From contig JAUWOA010000003.1 in NCBI GenBank assembly GCA_030612365.1, positions 1-56,239 on the forward strand: a DNA stretch of 56,239 bases, in the 5' to 3' direction. Of this stretch, positions 6,153 through 47,229 are shown in pieces. Under the pieces are notes generated by a model that worked only from the letters and a program-made list of their open reading frames with translations, had not been told where the DNA came from and made no database searches. Source of the stretch: Candidatus Thorarchaeota archaeon (GTDB taxonomy: Archaea > Asgardarchaeota > Thorarchaeia > Thorarchaeales > Thorarchaeaceae). Within the stretch, counting starts at the first letter, position 1. Every line of letters starts with the position of its first letter. The position numbers and the translations under genes were made by a program.

Positions 6153-7505
6153 CTATCCAGATGTAACCTTGGCAGATTCGACCACAATCGAGGGCGTCAC
6201 AACAGTTGACGTCACCCTAATGTCAGCCCCAATTCGATGAACCCTCTGAAGCAGGTCACGCATGTTGATGCCCACGAGAGTGTTCTTCACCGAATGTTCA
6301 ATCGCTCCGTCCTCAATGTAATGGCCTTCCATTACCATGGCGCTCAAATCGCCCGTCGTCATGTTTGGACGGTCTCCAGTATATCTAAGCAGGATGCCTT
6401 TCTTAATTTCGGAAACTAGGTCATCAAGGGTTCCTTTTCCAGGCGCTATGACAAGGTTGGAAGGCGAGATTGAAGGGAGTCCGGAGTAGGAGGGTCGACT
6501 TGCGTTTCCAGTGTTCTCCACCTGGTCCTTGTTGGCGGTATAGGAGTTATGCAGGATGTTCTTCAATACCCCACCGTGCAGAATCTGCATACGCTTTGTT
6601 GGAACCCCTTCAGCATCAAAAGATCGAGAGCCAATCCCACCAACTATATGAGAGTCATCCATGATACTGAGTGATTCTGAAGCAATCAACTCGCCCAGTG
6701 CGTCTGCTATGTACGAGCGCCCGTATTGAATCTCCTCAGCATTGATGGCACCTCCAAAACCGCCTCCAATGACAGTGCTCACCGCGAGAGGTGTGAGAAT
6801 GATGGGCATATCACCACCCTCAATTGTTCGACCGCCGAGATTGTTTACTGCACTGCGTCCTGCAGTGGAACCAACCCATTCAGGATCTATGCTTTTGAGG
6901 TTTCTAGATACCTGAAACTCGTAGCTTGAAGTCTGGTCATTATCGTCCTTGATTGTGGGAGAGCTGTTGATGAATATGGCTGCGGTTTCCACGGAACCGG
7001 AGATGCCAAGGGAGTTGACTATTGCTTTGATCCCGGCTGCCGCACTCAGCTGTGCTTCCACGGCAGTTTGCCTTGCATCAACTGCTTCATTTGTGGCATC
7101 GACAGTCCGCATAATCAGCTCTGCAGCTTCTTCAGACGAGAGTTTCTGGATTGCCGGGTCGAAGAGTCCCTTCACTGTGGGATAGATTCCGCTGTAGGAT
7201 GGTAATGTAACGAAGTCTGGGTCAGGCACCGATACCTTTGCGAGTTTAACGGACTTTGCGGCCGCCTCAAACAAATCCTCATCTTGAAGCGTGGTGACAT
7301 ATGCGAAGCCAACCCTGCCCGTCTTGACCACTGAACGGACACCACATCCTGCGTCCCTCTTCTCGGATGCACTCTTGATTGCATTATTCTCAACATCGAT
7401 TGTGAATGATCGTGACGTTGCTACATAGGCTTCCGCCTGACTTGCGCCAAGTTCTTCTGCCCTCCTAACGACCATCTCCCCAATCTCAAGAAGCCGCTGG
7501 TCCAA
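6153..7505 (-). CDS. tldE: TldE/PmbA non-catalytic subunit of the TldDE metalloprotease
   Basis: PmbA-type N-terminus (GASQAEAY), RSFDAEGVP, TGNASR, SPSNLVIAPG, TGDLS; no HExxxH. Probable TTG start at 7505, just after the tldD stop and a GGAGG. Confidence 0.88.
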   Translation of the reverse strand: MDQRLLEIGEMVVRRAEELGASQAEAYVATSRSFTIDVENNAIKSASEKRDAGCGVRSVVKTGRVGFAYVTTLQDEDLFEAAAKSVKLAKVSVPDPDFVTLPSYSGIYPTVKGLFDPAIQKLSSEEAAELIMRTVDATNEAVDARQTAVEAQLSAAAGIKAIVNSLGISGSVETAAIFINSSPTIKDDNDQTSSYEFQVSRNLKSIDPEWVGSTAGRSAVNNLGGRTIEGGDMPIILTPLAVSTVIGGGFGGAINAEEIQYGRSYIADALGELIASESLSIMDDSHIVGGIGSRSFDAEGVPTKRMQILHGGVLKNILHNSYTANKDQVENTGNASRPSYSGLPSISPSNLVIAPGKGTLDDLVSEIKKGILLRYTGDRPNMTTGDLSAMVMEGHYIEDGAIEHSVKNTLVGINMRDLLQRVHRIGADIRVTSTVVTPSIVVESAKVTSG

Positions 7506-7506
7506 C

Positions 7507-8892
7507 TTATGCACCTCCCACAGGAATTTCTCTAATCCGAGCATGAGGCCCACCAGCCATTTCTGGCACGGACTGTCCTGATTTTGCGCACGTGCCAGAT
7601 TCCATTGAAAAATCCTTGCCGATGGCATCTATCTTTGATAGCACTTCAAGAATCTGGCCAGCCATTGATACATCGCGGACAAGCTTTGTGAGCTCACCGT
7701 TTTCTATCATGTATCCATAGTTGGCTTGGAACATAAACTGACCTTTAGAAGGTACCGTGTAGCCGTAGTTATAACCGCATAACAAAAGTCCTCCATTTGT
7801 GTCTGAGATTAGTTCATCGACGTCCCAGTCACCAGGCTCCATGAAGGTGTTGCTCATACGAGGAAGGGGAGAATGCGTGAATGATTGAGCTCGAGCGGAC
7901 CCATTTGGTTCCATGTCAAGAAGAACAGCGGTTTCCAAACTATGCATCAACTCTGTCAGGATTCCATCTTTCACCAAGTTCCTTTTTCTTGTCTTGGTGC
8001 CTTCCCAATCGTATTCAAAGGACCCCCGCATACCTGGCAACGTTGGATCGTCTGTCAAGTTCAGGTGCTCAGGGCCCACCATCTTACCCACTTTATCCTC
8101 AAGAATAGTCGTGTGTGCGGGCCAGTTGTCTGCCTCAGATGCATGACCAAAGGCCTCATGAATCATCACGCCATTGAGAACAGGATCTAGGACTACATTA
8201 TAGGTGCCCCCCGCGGCGGCGACTGAAGATAGAAGGTCTACGGCAAGCTTTGCGGACTCCTCGCCAATGTGTTGGGACCGCTCCGTTTCCAAATCTTCGA
8301 ATCCCCCTCTTGTACCCATTGACTTGTAGCCACGTTGTCGATTAGTACCATCTTTCGCTGTTGTGATCGAAATAACAATTGGCAACGAATTCTCTAGGTG
8401 GACGCTCGTGCCAAGTGAGTTCGCAATGTAAAGCTCGGTGCATAGATCCCCATAGATAGTTCGAGTGTTGTGAATCCTGTCGTCAAAGTCACGTGCTTGG
8501 TCGTCAATCATCTTTGCGAAAGCAATCTTCTCCTCAAATGTTACATCCTGAAATGGCTTCTTGACCTTCAGTCTGACCTTGTCCTGGAAAGATGGCCCAT
8601 CAATCTCGAATCGCTTCGCTACCCTACCACGGGTTGCTAGCGCCAAGCGCGCAACAGATTCCCCGGTTTCGCGCATGCCTTTGGGTGTCAGATCAGTTGC
8701 CTGTCCAAAAGCCCAAGCACCATCAATGAATGCCCTAATTCCAGCGCCCTTTAGCCTCGAGGCGAGCGAACGCTTTGTAACACCATCGCTCAGCTCAATA
8801 ACTGTAGTGGTGGTATTCTCGATTCGAACGTCAGCAAACTTGGCGCCAACCTTGAGCACTGCTTCAATGGCAGCTTTGGCCGCATCTTCCAT
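7507..8892 (-). CDS. tldD: TldD metalloprotease subunit
   Basis: Intact IHEAFGHASEAD (HExxxH), YDWEG, PRMSNTFMEPG and C-terminal CAKSGQSVP. Confidence 0.93.
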   Translation of the reverse strand: MEDAAKAAIEAVLKVGAKFADVRIENTTTTVIELSDGVTKRSLASRLKGAGIRAFIDGAWAFGQATDLTPKGMRETGESVARLALATRGRVAKRFEIDGPSFQDKVRLKVKKPFQDVTFEEKIAFAKMIDDQARDFDDRIHNTRTIYGDLCTELYIANSLGTSVHLENSLPIVISITTAKDGTNRQRGYKSMGTRGGFEDLETERSQHIGEESAKLAVDLLSSVAAAGGTYNVVLDPVLNGVMIHEAFGHASEADNWPAHTTILEDKVGKMVGPEHLNLTDDPTLPGMRGSFEYDWEGTKTRKRNLVKDGILTELMHSLETAVLLDMEPNGSARAQSFTHSPLPRMSNTFMEPGDWDVDELISDTNGGLLLCGYNYGYTVPSKGQFMFQANYGYMIENGELTKLVRDVSMAGQILEVLSKIDAIGKDFSMESGTCAKSGQSVPEMAGGPHARIREIPVGGA

Positions 8893-9140
8893 AGTAATCG
8901 CTCCGGAGCATTTGCTCAGGCGCGGTATTGCGGTTTAACTAGTTTCTGATACGGAGTTTGTACTATTCGAGGCGCTCTCACGCCGAATCATGAATGACTG
9001 TGGACCTACAGTCGAATGGGGGTAAATATGTTCAGGAGCATCAATCTTCCTGCAACTGTTGCGGGTGTTTTGGGGATAATACACGAGTCTTTTTGGTCCG
9101 CGTGGACAAGGGAGATGGGCCATGGACCGGAGGTGCCCAG

Positions 9141-10715
9141 TTGACTGAGGAATCCTCAAACCGTATATGCAGAGCGTGCAAAAGCAAAGGTGCCACTCAC
9201 CTGTGTGAAGATTGTGGAGCAGTGCTCTGCTTGAATTGTCTTGAAACCAAGTCTACATCTTCATACGTATGCAAAGATTGCCATAGTATATTGGGCACTC
9301 CGTTGCCCGGGCAAAGGTTTGAGGAATGCAGTGACTGTGGGTCTAAGAATTTGAGTGTAGGTAGGCGAATGGAGGAGATATGTCCCGAGTGTCACTCGAC
9401 CCGCACCATCTTGGTAGATGTGAAGCAAAGGAGCATTGCACAAGAACTCAGGCAGGCAATCAACAGCTTGCTGTATGGCCACACAAAACTGAGAGAATTC
9501 AATAACAGATTGATTGGAGCAAAGCGCCTGCTCGTTTCCTTGAGAATGGCTAACTTCTTGCACTATAGGTGGCTGGATGACAAAATCCAGAGCACACAGG
9601 AAGAGCTACCTGCAATCAAGAACCGGATAGGAAACCAAGCGGATATGTTGGCCAGACAAATTGCAGCTGAAACAAAGGGTTTGATGAACACTGCCTCCTG
9701 GTCCGCCTCCCAGTTTCCGTTCATTGAAGGTGTTACAAACAGGGTCACGCATCTGGTCAACCAGTACAGGCACTCTGTGGACGAAGCATTGAGTGAAGCC
9801 GATCTTATCTTGAAGGACGTTACAAAGCAACTAGATGGATTGAACTATTACCGGTCACAGTTCTCCGGTTTCTACAAGCAAACGGAACTCTCAATCAACG
9901 AACTGCCTGTATGTGCGCTACCCAAAGTCAAAGTCACAGGAAGCGATTTCCTCAAGCATGACAAGGCAACTGGCACTCTCTTCATCACGAACAGGAGACT
10001 CGTCTTCATTGGGCAGACAGGTGTTGTTCGCAAAAAGACTGAGATTATCTTTGACTTCCCGCTTCTCTACCTGACCTCTATCGAGGAGGATGGTAGATTC
10101 AGGAAGAGAATGGTCCTGAAGATGAAACAAGGCGAAGTGAAAGTTTCCTGCAGTGAGCAGACGAAGAAAGTACTACCGGATTACGTCGAGATTGCCAAGA
10201 AGTTTGACAGGTATATGCAGACAGACCTGCAGAAGGTACGGAAACTGGAGCAGGTAAATGTCAACGTAAGCGACGTCAGACTCAGGATTGAAGACTTGAT
10301 CTATTCGTTGAATACGGGAAGGAATAGACCGAGATCCTGCATGACATACCCACAGACACCGGCTGGAGCGCACTATGCTGAGCCATCAAGTCCTCAACCG
10401 AGGTATGCCCACCGCGACTACGGAAGCTACCGTCAAGGGGCTCAATTCAAGGACTACCAGGAAAGGACAATTGATAGACGTGCATATCAGCAGTATCCAG
10501 GTGCAAGAGGCGAGATGGCGGCAGAGATTGAAACCCTCAGAAGAAACGCATCTTCTTTGGACAATGCATTACGTGATACTGTTCATCTCTTCAGGGGAGG
10601 AAAACTTGTTCCAGAGGATTTCATCAGACGGTACAAGGAACTGATGCGTGATTCATACTACACAAGAAAGGAAATCGAAAGACAGTCTTCAAGAGATGCG
10701 GGCTACTACAGGTAA
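9141..10715 (+). CDS. ESCRT-I-like protein: B-box/Zn fingers, helical region, GLUE/GRAM-like PH domain, Pro/Tyr-rich linker, Vps23/TSG101 steadiness box
   Basis: CRAC-x7-CEDC-x4-CLNC plus three more CxxC; GTLFITNRRLVF...LTSIEE; C-terminal LDNALRDTVHLFRGGKLVPEDFIRRYKELMRDSYYTRKEI resembles the steadiness box. Probable TTG start at 9141 after GGAGG (ORF track starts at 8994). Confidence 0.7.
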   Translation: MTEESSNRICRACKSKGATHLCEDCGAVLCLNCLETKSTSSYVCKDCHSILGTPLPGQRFEECSDCGSKNLSVGRRMEEICPECHSTRTILVDVKQRSIAQELRQAINSLLYGHTKLREFNNRLIGAKRLLVSLRMANFLHYRWLDDKIQSTQEELPAIKNRIGNQADMLARQIAAETKGLMNTASWSASQFPFIEGVTNRVTHLVNQYRHSVDEALSEADLILKDVTKQLDGLNYYRSQFSGFYKQTELSINELPVCALPKVKVTGSDFLKHDKATGTLFITNRRLVFIGQTGVVRKKTEIIFDFPLLYLTSIEEDGRFRKRMVLKMKQGEVKVSCSEQTKKVLPDYVEIAKKFDRYMQTDLQKVRKLEQVNVNVSDVRLRIEDLIYSLNTGRNRPRSCMTYPQTPAGAHYAEPSSPQPRYAHRDYGSYRQGAQFKDYQERTIDRRAYQQYPGARGEMAAEIETLRRNASSLDNALRDTVHLFRGGKLVPEDFIRRYKELMRDSYYTRKEIERQSSRDAGYYR

Positions 10716-10716
10716 G

Positions 10717-11340
10717 CTAAATGTCCAGCTCGCTCTCCAGAGACCTGATAGCTTCTTCAAGTTCATCTGTTTGACTGGCAGGTCTAGTGGCAGTCGAGGC
10801 TTCTGCTAACCCTGCCTCCTTGTCTATCTCCTGCATAGCAGAAGCCAAATCATCCGATGTAATCTCCGGCATCGTAGCATGAAATGCATCATCAGCGATA
10901 CCACTCTCGATTTCGAATTCCTCTAAGCGCTGAGCTATCTCATCGACATTCGCGACTACTTTCGTGGCATCGGTTGCATTTCCTAGCAACCCAAGGATCT
11001 TGGCGACCTCATCCATGGCGCGATTCGTCTTGGCAGCTGTCTGTGCACGGTTGACATGAGCAAGAATTTTGAGAATGTTGAGCCGCGACCTATCAACAGA
11101 AAGCGCATACCTACGAAACCTGATCATCTCAGTCGCATAGGTTCGATATGCGTCCACCTGACCGGCCTTACGTGCACGCACAGCCCTGCTCCTGGTTCCC
11201 CGCTCCTCCTTCTCGAGCTTGTTCCTCTGTCGTTCGAGCTGTTTCGCTATTATTCGCAGTTGGCTCTTGACTTCTCCAATGTCAGGTTTCTTCCGACCCC
11301 AAGAGAAAGCCTTTCTTATCGTACCCAAGTGCCTCACCAT
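10717..11340 (-). CDS. ESCRT-III subunit (Snf7 family, Vps2/24/46-like class)
   Basis: Basic N-terminal hairpin (QLRIIAKQLERQRNKLEKEE), acidic C-terminal half and MIM1-like end DELEEAIRSLESELDI. Start may be TTG 11328 after GGTGAGG. Confidence 0.9.
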   Translation of the reverse strand: MVRHLGTIRKAFSWGRKKPDIGEVKSQLRIIAKQLERQRNKLEKEERGTRSRAVRARKAGQVDAYRTYATEMIRFRRYALSVDRSRLNILKILAHVNRAQTAAKTNRAMDEVAKILGLLGNATDATKVVANVDEIAQRLEEFEIESGIADDAFHATMPEITSDDLASAMQEIDKEAGLAEASTATRPASQTDELEEAIRSLESELDI

Positions 11341-11522: not shown

Positions 11523-12752
11523 ATGTCAGGATCAGGTAGCGACAGGCTAGATATTGGGCTCAAGAATCTGCTCGATAAAGCGATAGACTTGGACAATAGA
11601 GGGATGAAGAAAGAGGCATGTCAGTACTATCTGCGAGCCAGCAAGATTCTCATCAAACTCTCAAAGTCTACGTCTCTCCCTTCTGTTCGAAAGCATTACT
11701 TCAAACGAGCCCAGGAGTGCGTTGACAGAGTTCGATACCTCTCGGGAATCAAGAAGAAGGCACGTGGACCAGTTGATGGTCTGCAGACTCCCCCAAAGAG
11801 CGATATCGGAGCAATCGCTGAATCGACTGTTAGTAAGCGACCTGATGCCACTCCCGAGCCAGACGAAGATACCAAGAGACTCCAGGAGATGATTGCGGAT
11901 ACAATTGTCACAGAGCGCCCCAACGTCAATCTGTCCGAGGTCGCTGGTCTTGAGGATGCAAAACAAGCCATCTATGACGCGATACTGGCACCGATGAAAC
12001 ATCCTGAGTTATTCAAGGGAAAAGCAAGGCAGCCATGGAGAGGCATCCTATTGTATGGTCCAGCGGGATGTGGGAAGACATTGATAGCGAAAGCAGTTGC
12101 AGCTGAAGTCAACGCCACATTCTTCAACGTGTCAGCCGCCAATATAGTGAGCAAATGGCTTGGCGAATCTGAACGTCTAGTCATGAGCCTTTTCGAGATG
12201 GCAAGAAAGAACCAACCAGCAATAATTTTCATGGACGAGCTGGACTCGATTGGTGTTTCAAGATCCGGGGATGATGTTGGAGGCGAAAGGCGGCTAAAGA
12301 CTCAGTTGTTAACAGAGTTGCAGGGGCTCGCAAGCGACCAGAATGAGAGAATTACACTGATTGGCGCGACCAATCTCCCGTGGGAGTTGGACTTTGCTTT
12401 GAGGTCCCGTTTCGAGAAGCGAATCCATGTGCCACTACCAGATAAGAGAGCACGGAAAGAGATTTTCAAGATCCATATCGAAGATGTAGAGATAGCATCA
12501 GAAGTGGACTTCAAGGAGCTTGCGAGTCTTAGTGAGGGATACAGTGGAAGGGACATCGGCGTGGTCTGTAGAGAGGCGGCAATGGAGCCCATAAGGGACC
12601 TTCAAAAGACAGGGAGGATGGAAGAGGAAGCAGAGATACTGAACCTTCGCCCTGTTTCAAGAGAGGACTTTCTCGGAGCCATTGAGAATATCAGGCCAGC
12701 GACATCCCCAGAAGATATCAAGAAGTACATTGACTGGGCGGAGGGTTCGTAG
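11523..12752 (+). CDS. vps4: Vps4 AAA+ ATPase with N-terminal MIT domain
   Basis: MIT three-helix region (KAIDLDNRG...ACQYY), Walker A GPAGCGKT, pore loop SKWLGESE, Walker B FMDELD, GATNLPWELD and SEGYSGRDI. Confidence 0.96.
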   Translation: MSGSGSDRLDIGLKNLLDKAIDLDNRGMKKEACQYYLRASKILIKLSKSTSLPSVRKHYFKRAQECVDRVRYLSGIKKKARGPVDGLQTPPKSDIGAIAESTVSKRPDATPEPDEDTKRLQEMIADTIVTERPNVNLSEVAGLEDAKQAIYDAILAPMKHPELFKGKARQPWRGILLYGPAGCGKTLIAKAVAAEVNATFFNVSAANIVSKWLGESERLVMSLFEMARKNQPAIIFMDELDSIGVSRSGDDVGGERRLKTQLLTELQGLASDQNERITLIGATNLPWELDFALRSRFEKRIHVPLPDKRARKEIFKIHIEDVEIASEVDFKELASLSEGYSGRDIGVVCREAAMEPIRDLQKTGRMEEEAEILNLRPVSREDFLGAIENIRPATSPEDIKKYIDWAEGS

Positions 12753-12755
12753 GGC

Positions 12756-13484
12756 TTGGGTGTCAAAGAGCGACAACGAGAGAAGAAAGAGACAGAAAAA
12801 CCTGTCAAAGATGCGGCCGAGCCCTCGACGGTCATAGAGCAGACTACTGATAGTGATGATTCCGCACATATGCCAGATATTGTTGTTGAAGTGGATGAGG
12901 GGTCCAATGCAACTGACACTATCGATACTGCTGTCGTTGAACCAGAGCAAATAATGGACAATGAAGCGGCCGCCGTAACCGAAATCGTGCCGCGATGGGG
13001 GAACATTGGAGAAGCTGAGTGGATGTATAACATTCCCACGAGGTCGCAGGACCTGGTTCTCTGGGCTGAAGAATGGGGCGACTTCCTGCTTGAATGGACA
13101 GAGTTTGAGAAGATTCATGTTCTCTCTGTTTCAGCATTCATTTCTAAACCCCCATTCAAAGACATACTTGGGAAAGTCAAAGCCTTTAGATCAATCGGAG
13201 ACTCGCTAGTTAGGAAAGACGTTGCTGCATGGCTTGGTCGGAATAGTGAACAACTCAGAGTGTACTGGAGGCCACTGGGGGAGTGGGCGGATTTGGTCTA
13301 CAGATGGGCTCTGGACTCAGGCATACTTCGTCTCGATGTGAAGTCACTGGTCATCCAAAAAGCAGAGCAGGATTTCTCGAAACTTCCTGAAGAGGACATA
13401 CACAGGATAATGGCTCTACTTGTTGAGAGAGGATTTGCCGAGTGGGTTGATAAGAAAGCTGGAGCCATTGTTGTTAAAGTCTAA
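12756..13484 (+). CDS. vps25: ESCRT-II Vps25-like protein with acidic N-terminal extension
   Basis: LVLWAEEWGDFLLEW, then tandem winged-helix pattern (VYWRPLGEWADLVYRWA; IMALLVERGFAEW). Starts 3 nt after vps4. Confidence 0.85.
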   Translation: MGVKERQREKKETEKPVKDAAEPSTVIEQTTDSDDSAHMPDIVVEVDEGSNATDTIDTAVVEPEQIMDNEAAAVTEIVPRWGNIGEAEWMYNIPTRSQDLVLWAEEWGDFLLEWTEFEKIHVLSVSAFISKPPFKDILGKVKAFRSIGDSLVRKDVAAWLGRNSEQLRVYWRPLGEWADLVYRWALDSGILRLDVKSLVIQKAEQDFSKLPEEDIHRIMALLVERGFAEWVDKKAGAIVVKV

Positions 13485-13489
13485 TCGAT

Positions 13490-14248
13490 TCAGGCTTCGG
13501 AAGTGCCTCCGCTCTCTGGATCATCTCTTGATCTCAAACCCGGGAAGTAGTACCGTCCACCCGTGCTGAATCTGATATCGGCAACAGCCATGCCAGCATC
13601 CACTAGACTAGTAAGAACCTGACGAGCATGATCTTCTGACCACTTCAGGGTCATCATGACCTCTTCAATCGAAACGTACCCCTTCAAGGCCGCCATGTTA
13701 ATTACGTCAGATTGGTCTCGACGAAGCTCAAGGGGACGAAGCTCCACGACCTTCACGCCTCCTTTTAGCGTTCGTATGCCGGGTATTAGACCGTGTTCTG
13801 CGACTCGGTTCACTGCCTCGATAACATCACTGAAGCTTACTGACTTGAACTGAGGAAGTCGTTTAACCACCTCAACAATCAGCTCTGCGAGACCCATAAG
13901 TCCCTTCGAAGCGTGGACTGTAGCGACGTCAAGAATTGCCAGCCCAATGTAGTCATAGAACTCGTCAAGGGTGAGACCTTGTGGAACAGACCTCATGGAT
14001 TGAACAGACAGGTCCAACATGTTCATTGCGTTAGGAAAGCTTTCGGGAATTCTCTCGTGGTCAAGGAACCGATAGATATCCGTCCCGAGGCGCCTTAGCT
14101 CACCGATGTTGGACTTTACTTCTTGAACCAGTGCCTCCGATTCTCTCTCGAATGTCCGGATGTCTACCGCACCGAGGTCGTATATCATCTTCAGTTGGTC
14201 CAACGTGGCAATTGAAGCAAATATCTCGGTTTGAAGTCGCTCATGCAT
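13490..14248 (-). CDS. Fusion of Vps28 N-terminal head and Vps22/Vps36 (EAP30) winged helices
   Basis: C-terminal ELRRDQSDVINMAALKGYVSIEEVMMTLKWSEDHARQVLTSLVDAGMA closely matches SNF8/Vps22. N-terminal TEIFASIATLDQLKMIYDLGAVDIRTFERESEALVQEVK matches the Vps28 head. Confidence 0.8.
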   Translation of the reverse strand: MHERLQTEIFASIATLDQLKMIYDLGAVDIRTFERESEALVQEVKSNIGELRRLGTDIYRFLDHERIPESFPNAMNMLDLSVQSMRSVPQGLTLDEFYDYIGLAILDVATVHASKGLMGLAELIVEVVKRLPQFKSVSFSDVIEAVNRVAEHGLIPGIRTLKGGVKVVELRPLELRRDQSDVINMAALKGYVSIEEVMMTLKWSEDHARQVLTSLVDAGMAVADIRFSTGGRYYFPGLRSRDDPESGGTSEA

Positions 14249-15703: not shown

Positions 15704-15836
15704 AGGTCTCGCCTCGTTCTACAGTCTACCAACTCGGACCCTGCAGCATTATGAGGCTTTTGGAGAACAGATATTTCGGAACTAAAAAAAGAGAAAACGT
15801 GAACAGATTCGATGCTGCCCACGTTCCTGTAGTGAA

Positions 15837-16049
15837 TCACATAGGCGCCGAAACAAGCTCGAATACCTTCTCCCGCGCGTCCCTCTCATGCTCTTGCTCC
15901 TCAATGAGACCTAGGTCCTTCAATCGACTCAAACCATAGTTGACTGTTCTCGGAGGCAAGAATGTGCTACTGATTAGGTCTCGCCGGGACATCCGGCGCT
16001 TACCCTTAAGAAGCACGTACAGAAACTTCGCGGAAGGAGGTAGTGACAA
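15837..16049 (-). CDS. Small winged-HTH DNA-binding protein (archaeal MarR/TrmB-like)
   Basis: LPPSAKFLYVLL...LPPRTVNYGLSRLKDLGLIEE...DAREKVF fits the conserved archaeal small wHTH family. Confidence 0.8.
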   Translation of the reverse strand: MSLPPSAKFLYVLLKGKRRMSRRDLISSTFLPPRTVNYGLSRLKDLGLIEEQEHERDAREKVFELVSAPM

Positions 16050-16188
16050 GAACGAGCGTCTGGCAAACGTGATCCCACCTTAGAGTTGTTGCCATATCGT
16101 ATTGTACCTCCATTCTGTTTTGCTTAGCAAGAACGGATTTATAGATAAGCCTTAGCTTTCATTCTGTCCTGCAAAGAGGAGGAACTTT

Positions 16189-21636: not shown

Positions 21637-24447
21637 TCAAAAGAACTGGTCAAGGGTCGTGAATCCTAGAAGCTCCTCGAAATCGATACCCACCGAATCA
21701 AGTACCTGCCCGAAGACTGATCTCAGCGTGTCAGTGTATTTGTCCTTATCCAGCCAGTAGCTCTTTTCCTTTGCAAGCTCAATCGGCAATACGCCTCCAT
21801 TGCCCTTAGTCTTAATGTACTCAATTATTGTACCAGGTGAAACATCATGTCCAGCATCGTTGAGCATCTTGGCTGCGCGAACATGCTGAGGTGTTGTCTT
21901 CCCGTATTGATCGAGCTTCTTGGTCAACTGGACACGGAATGCCAGGTCTTCTGGAGTGAAGGAATCGGTTTTGCCCTCCAACCGGTCAATGGCAGTGTTT
22001 ACAATCTCACGGATCTCATCTTTTGCTGCTTCAAATCCTTCGAGATTGTCCACCTTGCTAAGTACTGTCAGCATCTCTTGAAACGCGGCCTGGATGAATC
22101 GAGGCGTGTTTCTCTTCTTGCCGCTTAAGCCTTTCACTTCAACGTATCCTGTGGAGTAGACGCCAATGTAGTTTTTCTTAAGTTCAGAAAGAGCGACGTA
22201 CTTGTAGGTTTTCTCCACTTCCAAGTCGATTCCAAGCGCCTCCTGAGACCACTTCACAAGCTCATCTTGCTGTTCCTTGGATGGATTATCCAGAAACACG
22301 GAGTCTGTATCCCCATATAGTACTCTTACACCCATAGACTCAGCTTTTTCTTTCGTTTTCATGATTGCATTTCGTCCATAGGCCGTTACGCTCTCAGCTG
22401 CCGGCATGCAAAACAGCTCAAAGTGTCGAGCCCCGGTGACACCATAAGACGCATTGAGATACACCTTGAGCGCCTTCTCAACGACGCCGTACCAAGTCCG
22501 GGTTCTCTCATCCAATGACTTATCCTTGCTCTTCGCCTTGAACCACATCACTCTGGTATCTCTGAAGAAGCCAATGATTTCACTGATCATGCCTGTACGC
22601 TTCTTGCAGGTCCAATGACCTGTTTCAGGAACTCTGTTGTCTGTCGCAACCCTGCATTCTTCGTGTGGGCAATCGACTGTTTCATAGCTGATGTTATGCT
22701 GCTTCATAATTGTCGGATACAGACTTGCAAAGTCAAGCACCGTGGCATTGAAGTGAACTCCCGCGATTGGGTCGATTACAATCGCGCCCTTGAAGGCCTT
22801 GTCCTTTATCATAGCCTCAGTGTGGGCTTCCGCAGATTTGGCAGCCTCTATGTCAGACTGTCGAGGAATCAGAGCCCCCCGAAAACGATGTTCTTGCCTG
22901 AATAGGGACTGAATCCAAGAGGAAATGCCTAGACGCGTCACATCCTCCATCGACAAGCGGGATATGCGCATCAACAAGACAATCAATCGGAGGAGTAGGT
23001 TATCATCGTATTTTGTCAGATTCAATGTTATGTTAGCGTCAAGCCAACAGTACTGTGCCAGCTCATAGTATGGAAGAGATGATATGTCAGTGGTGAGTTC
23101 GAGTTTTCCAACACCTAGAAGGCCTTTGGCAATCGTGTCCAAGTTAGCCCTATCATAAGCACCTGACATAGCATAGATTCTGATGGAGGGGTTCTTGAGG
23201 AACCTATAGAGATCCACGTGAATTCCGCTACGAAGGAATGCGGTGTCATTTGCACGATTCATTCTGATAGGGCAGTACGTATCCAGGTCGACCCTCAAGT
23301 GCCGCGCCCTATGATAGAGGTAGTTCAGATCGAAAGCATCTCCTACAAAAGTCAGAACAATCGGATAATCATTAATGACTTCGAATGCCTTCACAAGCAT
23401 CTCTGCTTCGTCATCAAAGTACACGATCTCGAGACCCTTTGGAAAATCATCCCTCTTCTTGCCTGTGGGATGTCCTTTTCGCCTGAGAACGAAACACCTG
23501 TTGTAACCTTCATTGTCGGAGAGACCAATTGCCGTGACCTTGTTGGGGGCCTTCGACACATCAGGCATTCTGTTCTTGACAGGAACATAAACCTCAATAT
23601 CTATGGCAATCCGCCTAATGTCAGGAACCTCGCCAAAGAACATGGGAGTATAGGTTTCGATAATTCTCTCAATACCCTCCGAACCCGGAATGGTTCTCTT
23701 GAACTCTTTCAGGGTGTTCTTATCAATCTCCGGGGGACTGGCCACAAGATTCCCATTCTCAATCTTGTAGATGAGACCAGAAACGAATTTCATATCGTAG
23801 GTGTACGTATGATGATATCGGATGTTGGCCTCCCAGGCATGATTCACTTCATCGATTCGCAAGCTCTCTCTCATCGAATCTGGGCGACCACCAATGCTGA
23901 GGGGATCATTAGCGATTACCTTGGTCATAGCGACCTGCTTGTCACTGAGCAAATTAGTGAGCTCAACTGCTTCGGTACGTATGAAACCAGGATGACGTCG
24001 AATTCCATTAATTTTCTCGACTTCCTGTTGCGACAGGTCAGTGTACATATACGGCTTGTGACCGCTATTATCAGTCCAGAAATGGATCTTCTTTGTTTCG
24101 GGGTTGTAGAGGCTAGCAATAGCCTTGTTCGTGTTTCTATCGTAGTCAATTGAAAGAAGGAACGAGGGGGGAAGATCATTTGGCATGTCACGGTAGCCAA
24201 CTTCGTGAGATTGTTTGACCTTGTCCACAGCTGCTATCTTCTTTTCTTTTCCATTATTAGGTGGAGTGGACTCAACGTTGTCTACGCGTTTAACACTTGC
24301 ATTGACGGGGGGGGTTCCGGAATGTGCGTCCTTCTTGACAATAGTATCTGACGTTACTTCTGCACTGGAATCTTCATGACCACCGAAGTAATCATCCAAA
24401 GTGGACTGATTTCCATCTTCAGGTTTCTCGTCATTCACCAAAGTCAC
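21637..24447 (-). CDS. polB1: Family B DNA polymerase, PolB1 (Dpo1-like)
   Basis: ExoI IAIDIEVY, ExoIII YCWLDA, DFASLYPT, KVYLNASYG and YGDTDS. N-terminal region resembles crenarchaeal PolB1 (DNSGHKPY, DPLSIG, WEANIRY). Confidence 0.95.
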   Translation of the reverse strand: MTLVNDEKPEDGNQSTLDDYFGGHEDSSAEVTSDTIVKKDAHSGTPPVNASVKRVDNVESTPPNNGKEKKIAAVDKVKQSHEVGYRDMPNDLPPSFLLSIDYDRNTNKAIASLYNPETKKIHFWTDNSGHKPYMYTDLSQQEVEKINGIRRHPGFIRTEAVELTNLLSDKQVAMTKVIANDPLSIGGRPDSMRESLRIDEVNHAWEANIRYHHTYTYDMKFVSGLIYKIENGNLVASPPEIDKNTLKEFKRTIPGSEGIERIIETYTPMFFGEVPDIRRIAIDIEVYVPVKNRMPDVSKAPNKVTAIGLSDNEGYNRCFVLRRKGHPTGKKRDDFPKGLEIVYFDDEAEMLVKAFEVINDYPIVLTFVGDAFDLNYLYHRARHLRVDLDTYCPIRMNRANDTAFLRSGIHVDLYRFLKNPSIRIYAMSGAYDRANLDTIAKGLLGVGKLELTTDISSLPYYELAQYCWLDANITLNLTKYDDNLLLRLIVLLMRISRLSMEDVTRLGISSWIQSLFRQEHRFRGALIPRQSDIEAAKSAEAHTEAMIKDKAFKGAIVIDPIAGVHFNATVLDFASLYPTIMKQHNISYETVDCPHEECRVATDNRVPETGHWTCKKRTGMISEIIGFFRDTRVMWFKAKSKDKSLDERTRTWYGVVEKALKVYLNASYGVTGARHFELFCMPAAESVTAYGRNAIMKTKEKAESMGVRVLYGDTDSVFLDNPSKEQQDELVKWSQEALGIDLEVEKTYKYVALSELKKNYIGVYSTGYVEVKGLSGKKRNTPRFIQAAFQEMLTVLSKVDNLEGFEAAKDEIREIVNTAIDRLEGKTDSFTPEDLAFRVQLTKKLDQYGKTTPQHVRAAKMLNDAGHDVSPGTIIEYIKTKGNGGVLPIELAKEKSYWLDKDKYTDTLRSVFGQVLDSVGIDFEELLGFTTLDQFF

Positions 24448-24546
24448 TCACCCCATAGGTTGGCTATTAAGTCCTGATAAGCACTTCCAATGAACCAGAA
24501 ATACATTCCGAGCAGTTCATATGAGAAGCCACCCTTTTGCGGGTCC

Positions 24547-24984
24547 ATGGTGCGCTCACTCACTACTGAAGCGAAACGCGTTATCTTCGCGCGCATGGAG
24601 CCAGGCGAGGACATCTTAAAGACGATTGAGGCCGTTTCTTCGGAACATGGCGTTCGAGCAGGTCAACTGACGTTGATAGGAGCAGTATCAATAGCTTGTC
24701 TGGGGTTTTTTGATAGAGAGAGCATGGAATACAAGACTTACACTGTGGACAAAGACCTTGAAGTTGTGTCATGCATGGGAAACATCGCATCCACACAAGA
24801 GGGGGGGCTCATTGTACATGCTCACATGGTTGTCGCGGATCAAGACGGTAAGTGCTATGGAGGCCATCTAATGCCGGGGTGTGAAGTTTCCGTCACAATG
24901 GAATTGATCATCACGGAACTGGACGAAGATGTTGGGCGAGCCAGAGATGAAGCGACCGGCCTGAATCTGCTCGATATCAAATAG
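24547..24984 (+). CDS. PPC/DUF296 domain protein
   Basis: RMEPGEDIL, LIGAVS, VSCMGNI and VHAHMVVADQDGKCYGGHL. Start placed at ATG 24547. Confidence 0.9.
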   Translation: MVRSLTTEAKRVIFARMEPGEDILKTIEAVSSEHGVRAGQLTLIGAVSIACLGFFDRESMEYKTYTVDKDLEVVSCMGNIASTQEGGLIVHAHMVVADQDGKCYGGHLMPGCEVSVTMELIITELDEDVGRARDEATGLNLLDIK

Positions 24985-25000
24985 AATCTTAGACTACTCA

Positions 25001-25450
25001 TTATTTCGAACCAAGCAAGTCAGTAGATGCCCGGATAATCTGGGCAACGCTATCAAGCTCATCGCGTGGAGCCATCTCTTCACGGTAGTCGTCTGGAAAT
25101 AGGAATCCGAATCTATCGCCTTCGTTTCGGGGTATCACGTGGACATGTAGATGGGGAACCTCTTGTCCCGCGCCAACCCCATTGGCAATTACATTGATTA
25201 TGCCATCTGGTTCAAATGCTGAGTGCACCTTGCGGTTCAACTCCGCTAGACGCGCACCAAGACGTTTGGCGATTTTGGCATCAACATCCAGCATGTTCAC
25301 ATAGTGCTGCTTTGGAATCAATAAGCAGTGTCCTTTGCTAATGGGAAATATGTCCATGAAGGCCATCGTGAATTTGTCTTCGAAAATGATAGATGCGGGT
25401 ATCTCACCACGAACTATCTTGCAGAAAAGGCAGGATTCATTGTCGCCCAT
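25001..25450 (-). CDS. HIT family nucleotide hydrolase
   Basis: CLFCKIVRGEIP, GHCLLIPKQH and HIT motif VPHLHVHVIPR. Start placed at ATG 25450. Confidence 0.93.
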   Translation of the reverse strand: MGDNESCLFCKIVRGEIPASIIFEDKFTMAFMDIFPISKGHCLLIPKQHYVNMLDVDAKIAKRLGARLAELNRKVHSAFEPDGIINVIANGVGAGQEVPHLHVHVIPRNEGDRFGFLFPDDYREEMAPRDELDSVAQIIRASTDLLGSK

Positions 25451-46567: not shown

Positions 46568-47083
46568 CTATACTAACTGCTTCTTGTTTACTAACCACCA
46601 AGCGCCACGCTTACCCTTGATAATGCCCTTCCTATGCATCACTATCTCCACACCCAAGATGGATTTTGCTCTCTCATTGATCTTGTCCAAGCGATCGAGT
46701 ATCGTTCGGCGTTTTCCTTGACTTCCTGTTAGAGCCAGTGCGAGTTCAGGTGTTGTAGCACCTTCATGTTGTAGGAAGTATGCAAGGAGTTTGCGATCAA
46801 GGTCATCTCGGCAGACTTTCGTTTTTGTCAGATCATTCAACTCGTCAAGGTATACGCTGGTCGACTGCTCAGTTTCAAGATGCTCCACCCTTGTCTTCAG
46901 TTGATCAATCTCTTCGGCGAGTTCCATCAACATCGGGGGCAATTCCTCATCAAGCTTCCAGAGGATTGCATCCTTAATGAACCGCTGGCGGCCATTGGCC
47001 CCAGCAAGCTCATCTATGAGGTCCAGTGTTTTCTGATCTAACCGAATACGGATGCTGACAGATGCATTGCTTTTCTTAGTCAT
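46568..47083 (-). CDS. Putative regulator: ribbon-helix-helix, coiled coil and winged-HTH-like domain
   Basis: SVSIRIRLDQKTLDLIDELAG..GRQRFIKDAI (RHH); DDLDRKLLAYFLQHEGATTPELALAL (wHTH). Start placed at ATG 47083. Confidence 0.65.
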   Translation of the reverse strand: MTKKSNASVSIRIRLDQKTLDLIDELAGANGRQRFIKDAILWKLDEELPPMLMELAEEIDQLKTRVEHLETEQSTSVYLDELNDLTKTKVCRDDLDRKLLAYFLQHEGATTPELALALTGSQGKRRTILDRLDKINERAKSILGVEIVMHRKGIIKGKRGAWWLVNKKQLV

Positions 47084-47229
47084 CGCCCGACACCGCACGT
47101 ATCTGTGCCTTGATAGACACAGCAATTGATGCGCTTGACCGAGAAAAAAGGCTTGCCCTAGGCCATGCTATCAAGCGCCCGACACAGTTATAACATCAAC
47201 TTCGAGGGACTCGCAAAGATTACCCTTCG

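Follow-up and report, generated by a model that had tools for sequence, protein, structure and literature searches.

The Vps22 protein of Thorarchaeia is a fusion in which the tandem winged-helix core of Vps22/SNF8 is preceded by a complete Vps28 N-terminal domain and a short disordered linker, with the N-domain taking the place of the canonical Vps22 N-terminal helices. We analyzed it in a window of 56,239 nucleotides (the window being the whole stretch of DNA under study) from a Candidatus Thorarchaeota genome that is 88% complete. The same architecture occurs across the Thorarchaeia class, and the fusion is the sole detectable Vps28-like sequence in the source genome. Considered jointly, the evidence makes it likely that Thorarchaeia possess a Vps22 form with a Vps28 N-domain in place of its helices, that this form originated through a deletion in place, and that its N-terminal hairpin docks adaptor proteins. 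Asgard ESCRT proteins serve as study models for the assembly of the eukaryotic pathway, which leads from ubiquitin to ESCRT-I, -II, and -III. A lineage that hard-wires an ESCRT-I headpiece element to ESCRT-II, without ubiquitin, UEV-Vps23, or the Vps28 C-terminal domain (CTD), would indicate that the modules of this pathway can be re-joined.

The gene, its parts, and its ESCRT neighbors in the window are as follows.

13490..14248, (-) strand: Vps28N-Vps22 fusion gene, 252 aa plus stop, ATG at 14248 (ORF list)
14000..14239, (-) strand: Vps28 N-terminal domain, residues 4-83 (hhalign, phmmer, PDB profile search, AF2/Foldseek)
13976..13999, (-) strand: fusion junction linker, residues 84-91 (low pLDDT, variable orthologue alignment columns)
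13535..13975, (-) strand: Vps22/SNF8 tandem winged-helix core, residues 92-238 (Pfam, phmmer, Foldseek, hhalign)
12756..13484, (+) strand: Vps25, an ESCRT-II subunit (Pfam ESCRT-II PF05871, E=1.4e-12)
11523..12752, (+) strand: Vps4 AAA ATPase with MIT, AAA, and Vps4_C domains (Pfam)
10717..11340, (-) strand: ESCRT-III, Snf7 family (Pfam Snf7, E=4.7e-11)
8994..10715, (+) strand: Zn-ribbon/coiled-coil/PH-like protein with a C-terminal helical hairpin (weak Pfam B-box, bPH_3, and Zn_Ribbon matches)

The fusion gene and vps25 are convergent with 5 nt between their stop codons, and an aspartyl-tRNA synthetase gene precedes the fusion ORF on the same strand. The adjacency of vps25, itself a likeness to canonical Vps22/SNF8/EAP30, is a conserved arrangement, and the five-gene cluster composed of the Zn-ribbon/PH, ESCRT-III, Vps4, Vps25, and fusion genes is kept across Thor genera. 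Full-length orthologues of the fusion protein in Thorarchaeota MAGs range from 245 to 277 aa.

A Vps28 N-terminal domain joined to a Vps22 core

The Vps28 N-terminal domain, which is of the steadiness-box type, is complete and spans residues 4-83. A Pfam scan of residues 1-90 alone returned no VPS28 match at E<=10, since the sensitivity of a single sequence is too low, and profile methods were therefore needed. By phmmer, these residues scored at most 46 bits against 30 non-Thor Asgard Vps28 proteins, with query residues 2-78 aligned to Vps28 residues 20-96, while BLASTP identity to non-Thor Asgard Vps28 was no higher than 37% over 65 residues. The pattern common to both groups is ELYxxIATLDxL ... 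G.D...F...E+I...FP.A. When the Thor Vps22 N-terminal region was represented as a profile, hhalign matched it to Asgard Vps28 over residues 4-83 with a probability of 99.3% (E=1.1e-20), but to canonical Vps22 with a probability of just 2.6%. Compared with metazoan VPS28, the probability was 36% (P=3.8e-4), which is attributable to the poor diversity of a metazoan-only VPS28 alignment (Neff ~2). Even so, query residue 6 was aligned to human residue 39, the same gapless register that the earlier note had drawn by eye for residues ~6-45. The link to eukaryotic Vps28 is instead provided by the control comparison of Asgard with metazoan Vps28 (hhalign probability of 98.6%), together with the PDB profile search and Foldseek. 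Among all PDB sequences, the five best matches to the Thor profile were the Vps28 N-domain chains 2F6M_B, 2P22_B, 2F66_B, 2CAZ_B, and 6VME_E. Furthermore, 18 of 27 orthologues match Pfam VPS28 at E<=1, and the sister-family orthologue at locus L003 exceeds the Pfam cut-off (26.9 bits vs 24.5).

The predicted fold is in agreement with these results. The AlphaFold2 model of residues 1-91 (pLDDT 85.9, pTM 0.73) contains the features of the Vps28 N-terminal headpiece domain, namely a helical hairpin (H2-24/H30-53, pLDDT >90) followed by three short helices (58-78), and each of its 12 best Foldseek matches in the PDB is a Vps28-N chain from an ESCRT-I headpiece or core structure. The first ten of these (2F6M, 6VME, and 2CAZ Vps28 chains) align over 81-83 columns with a query TM of 0.64-0.75 and an rmsd of 1.5-3.4 A, whereas ranks 11 and 12 (2P22_B and 2F66_B) are weaker (TM 0.55-0.56), with Vps23-C hairpins coming next. 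The N-domain motif E-[IL]-[FY]-A-S-I-A-T-L-D-Q-L is evidently under strong constraint, as A11, I13, A14, T15, L16, and D17 are unvarying in 27 orthologues. The domain is also Vps28-type rather than a generic steadiness box, since the Vps23 steadiness-box profile matches Asgard Vps28-N with an hhalign probability of 96% and the Thor N-domain with only 2.7%. In both sequence and predicted fold, the Thor N-domain thus resembles Vps28 (PF03997; 2F6M_B, 2CAZ_B, 6VME_E). The difference is that the fusion lacks the Vps28 C-terminal four-helix bundle, because the Asgard Vps28 HMM covers just positions 22-101 of 218; the earlier note had reported this bundle missing. In eukaryotes, the N-domain helical-hairpin module builds the ESCRT-I headpiece, while the C-terminal four-helix bundle contacts Vps36 of ESCRT-II.

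The remainder of the protein contains the two tandem winged-helix domains that characterize Vps22/SNF8. Pfam EAP30 (PF04157) matches residues 75-224 (E=1.5e-13; 51.4 bits, cut-off 26.8), and in a phmmer search of the PDB, residues 92-238 pair with 91-239 of human SNF8 (3CUQ_A, E=1.3e-17; also 2ZME_A). This alignment includes both motif pairs, DEFYDYIGLAILDV/GDFYYELGVQIIEV and KWSEDHARQVL/KWETERARQVL, by which the earlier note had recognized SNF8/Vps22 at residues ~92-240. The hhalign match to canonical Asgard and eukaryotic Vps22 has an E value of 9e-39, and the core is ~27-44% identical to the canonical Asgard and human proteins. The full-length AlphaFold2 model, which is based upon 27 orthologues, has a mean pLDDT of 77.9 and places the winged helices at ~94-170 (wH1) and ~177-234 (wH2), with a pTM of 0.40 and an interdomain geometry that is not predicted. 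Its best Foldseek matches in the PDB are 3CUQ_A, 2ZME_A, and 1U5T_A, all three being Vps22 chains from ESCRT-II of human or yeast. The separate profile and AlphaFold comparisons that the earlier note had recommended assign the N-terminal third of the protein to Vps28 and the C-terminal two thirds to Vps22.

No N-terminal helical region of the canonical Vps22 type is present. The EAP30 match begins at profile position 63, leaving positions 1-62 unmatched, and in the Thor form generally the match starts no earlier than position 49-63. By contrast, Vps22 of eukaryotes and other Asgard lineages (P0125, P0145, and P0197) is matched over positions 2-218. The Vps22 helices have therefore been replaced rather than supplemented. 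Compared with canonical Vps22/SNF8/EAP30 (3CUQ_A, 1U5T_A), the Thor form lacks both the N-terminal basic helix, a loss already pointed out by the earlier note, and the helical domain, which in ESCRT-II pack against Vps36 and bind membrane. Between the two halves, pLDDT falls below 50 at residues 82-88, and the alignment columns at ~84-91 are variable, contain indels, and are poorly conserved among orthologues. A short disordered linker thus joins the Vps28 N-domain to the winged-helix core.

Relation to known Asgard ESCRT fusions

Although the earlier note implied that this architecture was new, it has been described previously. In the archaeal ESCRT survey of Makarova et al. (2024, mBio; PMC10936438), Asgard Vps22 (cog.002769) is reported as fused to a steadiness box, and Table S3 of that study annotates residues 1-70 of the Thorarchaeota Vps22 KXH75178.1 as PF03997, ‘VPS28 protein (N-terminal domain - SB)’, with an HHpred probability of 99%. 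The gene in the window does not differ in kind from this Asgard ‘SB-Vps22’ (Vps22#, cog.002769): it belongs to the same lineage and likewise encodes a Vps28-N module directly before Vps22 winged helices, within an ESCRT cluster. Given this earlier publication, the value of the present analysis lies in confirmation and detail. To the description of Makarova et al. (2024) it adds that the N-domain is Vps28-type rather than Vps23-type, that it is the only Vps28-like sequence of Thor genomes throughout the class, and that the Vps22 helices were replaced rather than supplemented, while gene order in other lineages suggests a deletion in place.

A second known case of neighboring Asgard ESCRT genes merged into one polypeptide is the Heimdallarchaeial UEV-Vps23-Vps28 fusion (Hatano et al. 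2022; PMC9192718). In that fusion, both of the merged subunits belong to ESCRT-I and the Vps28 CTD is retained, whereas the Thor fusion spans the boundary separating ESCRT-I from ESCRT-II and has lost the CTD. Two non-Thor Asgard loci in our set (L036 and L043) contain 470-aa frames composed of a Vps23-like part and a full Vps28, corresponding to the Heimdall-type ESCRT-I fusion.

Possible function and partners of the fusion

A covalent bridge linking ESCRT-I to ESCRT-II, the function proposed by the earlier note, is plausible. The winged-helix core would bind Vps25, encoded next door, which would in turn recruit ESCRT-III and Vps4, and the core might pair either with itself or with a 781-aa EAP30 paralogue. 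At the N-terminus, the Vps28 hairpin would dock onto the hairpins of upstream adaptor proteins, for which the best candidate would be the Zn-ribbon/PH/hairpin protein of the same five-gene cluster. In this manner, ESCRT-II could acquire a covalent tether to cargo or membrane recognition modules that does not depend on the eukaryotic Vps28-CTD:Vps36 contact. Two published interactions are relevant here: Thor Vps22 self-interacts in yeast two-hybrid assays (Hatano et al. 2022; PMC9192718) and a free steadiness-box protein of Loki binds Vps22 (PMC9192718).

The ‘ESCRT-I’ that would be bridged in this way is not canonical. Neither a Vps23/UEV homologue (full-length Asgard Vps23 HMM) nor a significant steadiness-box partner (SB-only Vps23 HMM; best E=0.077, unconvincing) was found in the source genome; ubiquitin, moreover, is reported to be absent from Thorarchaeota (PMC9192718). 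The missing Vps23/UEV agrees with published statements that Thorarchaeia are devoid of both UEV-Vps23 and ubiquitin. The Zn-ribbon protein is a candidate steadiness-box partner of the Znr_CC_PH_SB type of Makarova et al. (2024). Across Thor genera, a distance of 2.5-3.5 kb separates its gene from vps22, and its C-terminal hairpin is strongly conserved (motif LVPEDFIRRYKxLMRDSY), with weak similarity to both the Mod_r steadiness-box region (E=0.078) and the Asgard Vps23 steadiness box (hhalign of the C-terminal profile, P=2.8e-4). Its orthologues align only from ~residue 45, which places its true start probably near that residue, downstream of 8994.

We would tentatively go one step further and propose, with somewhat less than an even degree of belief, that the deletion collapsed the ESCRT-I/ESCRT-II boundary in Thorarchaeia, such that the hybrid is the only Vps28 headpiece element and assembles directly with non-ubiquitin adaptors, namely the Zn-ribbon/PH/hairpin protein and perhaps a BAR protein that has a Vps28-CTD-like segment. 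If so, Thorarchaeia would operate a ubiquitin-independent, two-tier ESCRT pathway, and the fusion would be a natural demonstration that a covalent linker can replace the Vps28-CTD:Vps36 contact. In addition, the lineage provides a simple recombinant system with which Vps28 N-domain binding can be probed.

The strongest competing explanation accepts the fusion as real, but would have the Vps28-type hairpin substitute structurally for the lost Vps22 helical domain, mediating Vps22 homodimerization or pairing with the 781-aa EAP30 paralogue in an ESCRT-II-like complex, with no role in an ESCRT-I headpiece. The hairpin does correspond to the canonical helical region in position and approximate length, with query residue 92 aligned to residue 91 of human SNF8, and the yeast two-hybrid self-interaction of Thor Vps22 (PMC9192718), as well as the lack of Vps23/UEV and of a significant steadiness-box partner in the source genome, would all be in keeping with such a role. 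However, the residues conserved in the fusion (ELYxxIATLDxL, G.D..F, and FP.A) are those of free Asgard Vps28, which suggests that the ancestral binding surface has been retained, and the hairpin-bearing Zn-ribbon/PH protein stays in the cluster across the class. We consider purely structural replacement unlikely, albeit the most serious of the alternatives. The N-hairpin keeps the conserved residues of free Vps28, which is most simply read as continued packing against partner hairpins, and this docking role is the one we prefer.

Probable origin of the fusion

In at least 50 genomes outside of Thorarchaeia, which represent a dozen or more families, vps22 is immediately preceded by vps28 in the same orientation. 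At locus L024, ~4 nt separate the end of vps28 from vps22, and vps25 has the convergent orientation that it also has in the window; at locus L031, the gene order is vps23-vps28-94aa ORF-vps22. The fusion probably arose in place by a deletion between such adjacent, co-directional vps28 and vps22 genes, which would have removed the Vps28 C-terminal domain along with the Vps22 N-terminal helices.

The reverse scenario, in which the fused form is ancestral and the separate genes of other Asgard lineages and eukaryotes arose by gene fission, would equally be expected to leave adjacent, co-directional vps28 and vps22 as its remnant in most lineages. Fission would, however, require that the C-terminal bundle of Vps28 and the N-terminal helices of Vps22, both of which are common to eukaryotes and more than 12 Asgard families, were gained independently, and current Asgard trees already indicate that Thorarchaeia are nested among lineages with separate genes. 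As the fusion is confined to one class, we regard an ancestral fusion as very unlikely and favor deletion in place.

Distribution and authenticity of the fusion

The identity of the N-terminal region can be assessed in both directions. A non-Thor Asgard Vps28 HMM searched against the 18,672 six-frame ORFs of the source genome yielded one significant match, which is the fusion ORF (E=4e-14). Conversely, an HMM of the Thor Vps22 N-terminus matches every Vps28 in 30 non-Thor loci, with E values from 1e-13 to 4e-22, and none of the neighboring Vps22 proteins in the same 30 loci. These results leave a negligible probability that no fusion exists and that residues 1-90 are merely fast-evolving helices of a normal Vps22, resembling Vps28 through generic hairpin similarity. 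The N-terminal region is indeed equal in length to that of human SNF8 and, as a single sequence, it has no Pfam VPS28 match; yet the profile comparisons described above separate it from canonical Vps22 (2.6%) as well as from the Vps23 steadiness box (2.7%), making the match specific to Vps28 (99.3%, E=1e-20), and the structural alignment spans 81-83 of 91 residues and extends beyond the hairpin. We take this explanation as already refuted.

As for distribution, which the earlier note had singled out for checking, a non-Thor Vps28 profile matches 74 of 81 Thorarchaeia genomes, including 23 of the 24 high-quality ones. There is a single match per genome, except for one genome with two. All of these matches are limited to the N-domain (~14-94 of 210) and lie inside a Vps22-sized frame (246-323 aa where complete), and wherever a genome is listed in both the Vps28-profile and the vps22 search, the former match lies within the coordinates of the latter. 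In the same 81 genomes, the profile search found no stand-alone Vps28, including its C-terminal bundle. Canonical Vps28 of 205-235 aa, as identified by Pfam VPS28, is encoded in 128 of 201 genomes sampled from the phylum and in none of the Thor family. The Vps22 proteins of two non-Thor genomes, for which the BLAST alignments started from residue 18-19, were checked for a Vps28-like N-terminus, but their N-termini are canonical.

An assembly chimera or a gene-calling artefact merging two genes, a possibility raised by the earlier note, can be dismissed with near certainty and is already refuted: nothing in its favor was found apart from a junction that is a low-complexity, low-confidence linker, while the uninterrupted frame is shared by 137 clusters of full-length homologues, in part encoded on contigs as long as 3.16 Mb, and recurs in 74 independent genomes.

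Other ESCRT-like proteins in the source genome

Outside of the window, two additional proteins are of interest as potential components of the same pathway. The 781-aa EAP30/Vps22-36-like paralogue mentioned above is encoded at 22454-25003 (+) of contig C117 and has orthologues of 780-860 aa in other Thor genomes. Its C-terminal winged-helix tandem matches Pfam EAP30 over residues 574-757 (E=1.5e-6) and follows a long stretch of unknown function. The match starts from profile position 33, meaning that more of the canonical helical region is retained than in the fusion, and the paralogue is therefore a possible Vps36-like partner of the fusion protein.

The second is a 410-aa coiled-coil/BAR-like protein encoded at 11830-13062 (-) of contig C94, which probably corresponds to the thorarchaeial ‘Vps28-BAR’ fusion of Eme et al. 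(2023). Its orthologues weakly match Pfam VPS28 (22-25 bits) and BAR. We rejected these proteins as canonical Vps28, given an hhalign probability of 0.4% against Asgard Vps28. A weak signal to residues 144-217 of metazoan VPS28, which is the CTD (hhalign P=3e-4), implies that the function of the Vps28 CTD may survive elsewhere in the genome, and this is a caveat to its loss from the fusion. Separately, contig C137 contains an ORF of ~118 aa at 15739-16113 (+) that may be a free-standing hairpin protein; it has a C-terminal helix-G-helix and a sub-threshold match to the Vps28-N HMM (E=0.044).

Pfam VPS28/Vps23_core matches at 46784-46951 (-) (E=0.18) and on contig C47 (E=0.34) are at chance level. 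The former is located in a 185-aa ORF of the window (46568-47125, (-) strand), the only Pfam VPS28 ‘hit’ of the genome, which involves the C-terminal part of the profile and was judged to be due to chance because control bacteria also matched in the same search; the best Pfam match of this ORF is PhoU_div (E=0.003). Also in the window, 6153-8892 (-) encodes a tandem pair of TldD/PmbA-family metallopeptidase genes, for which the mechanical ORF calls overlap by ~120 nt (7507-7628), which makes it probable that the second gene was assigned a wrong upstream start.
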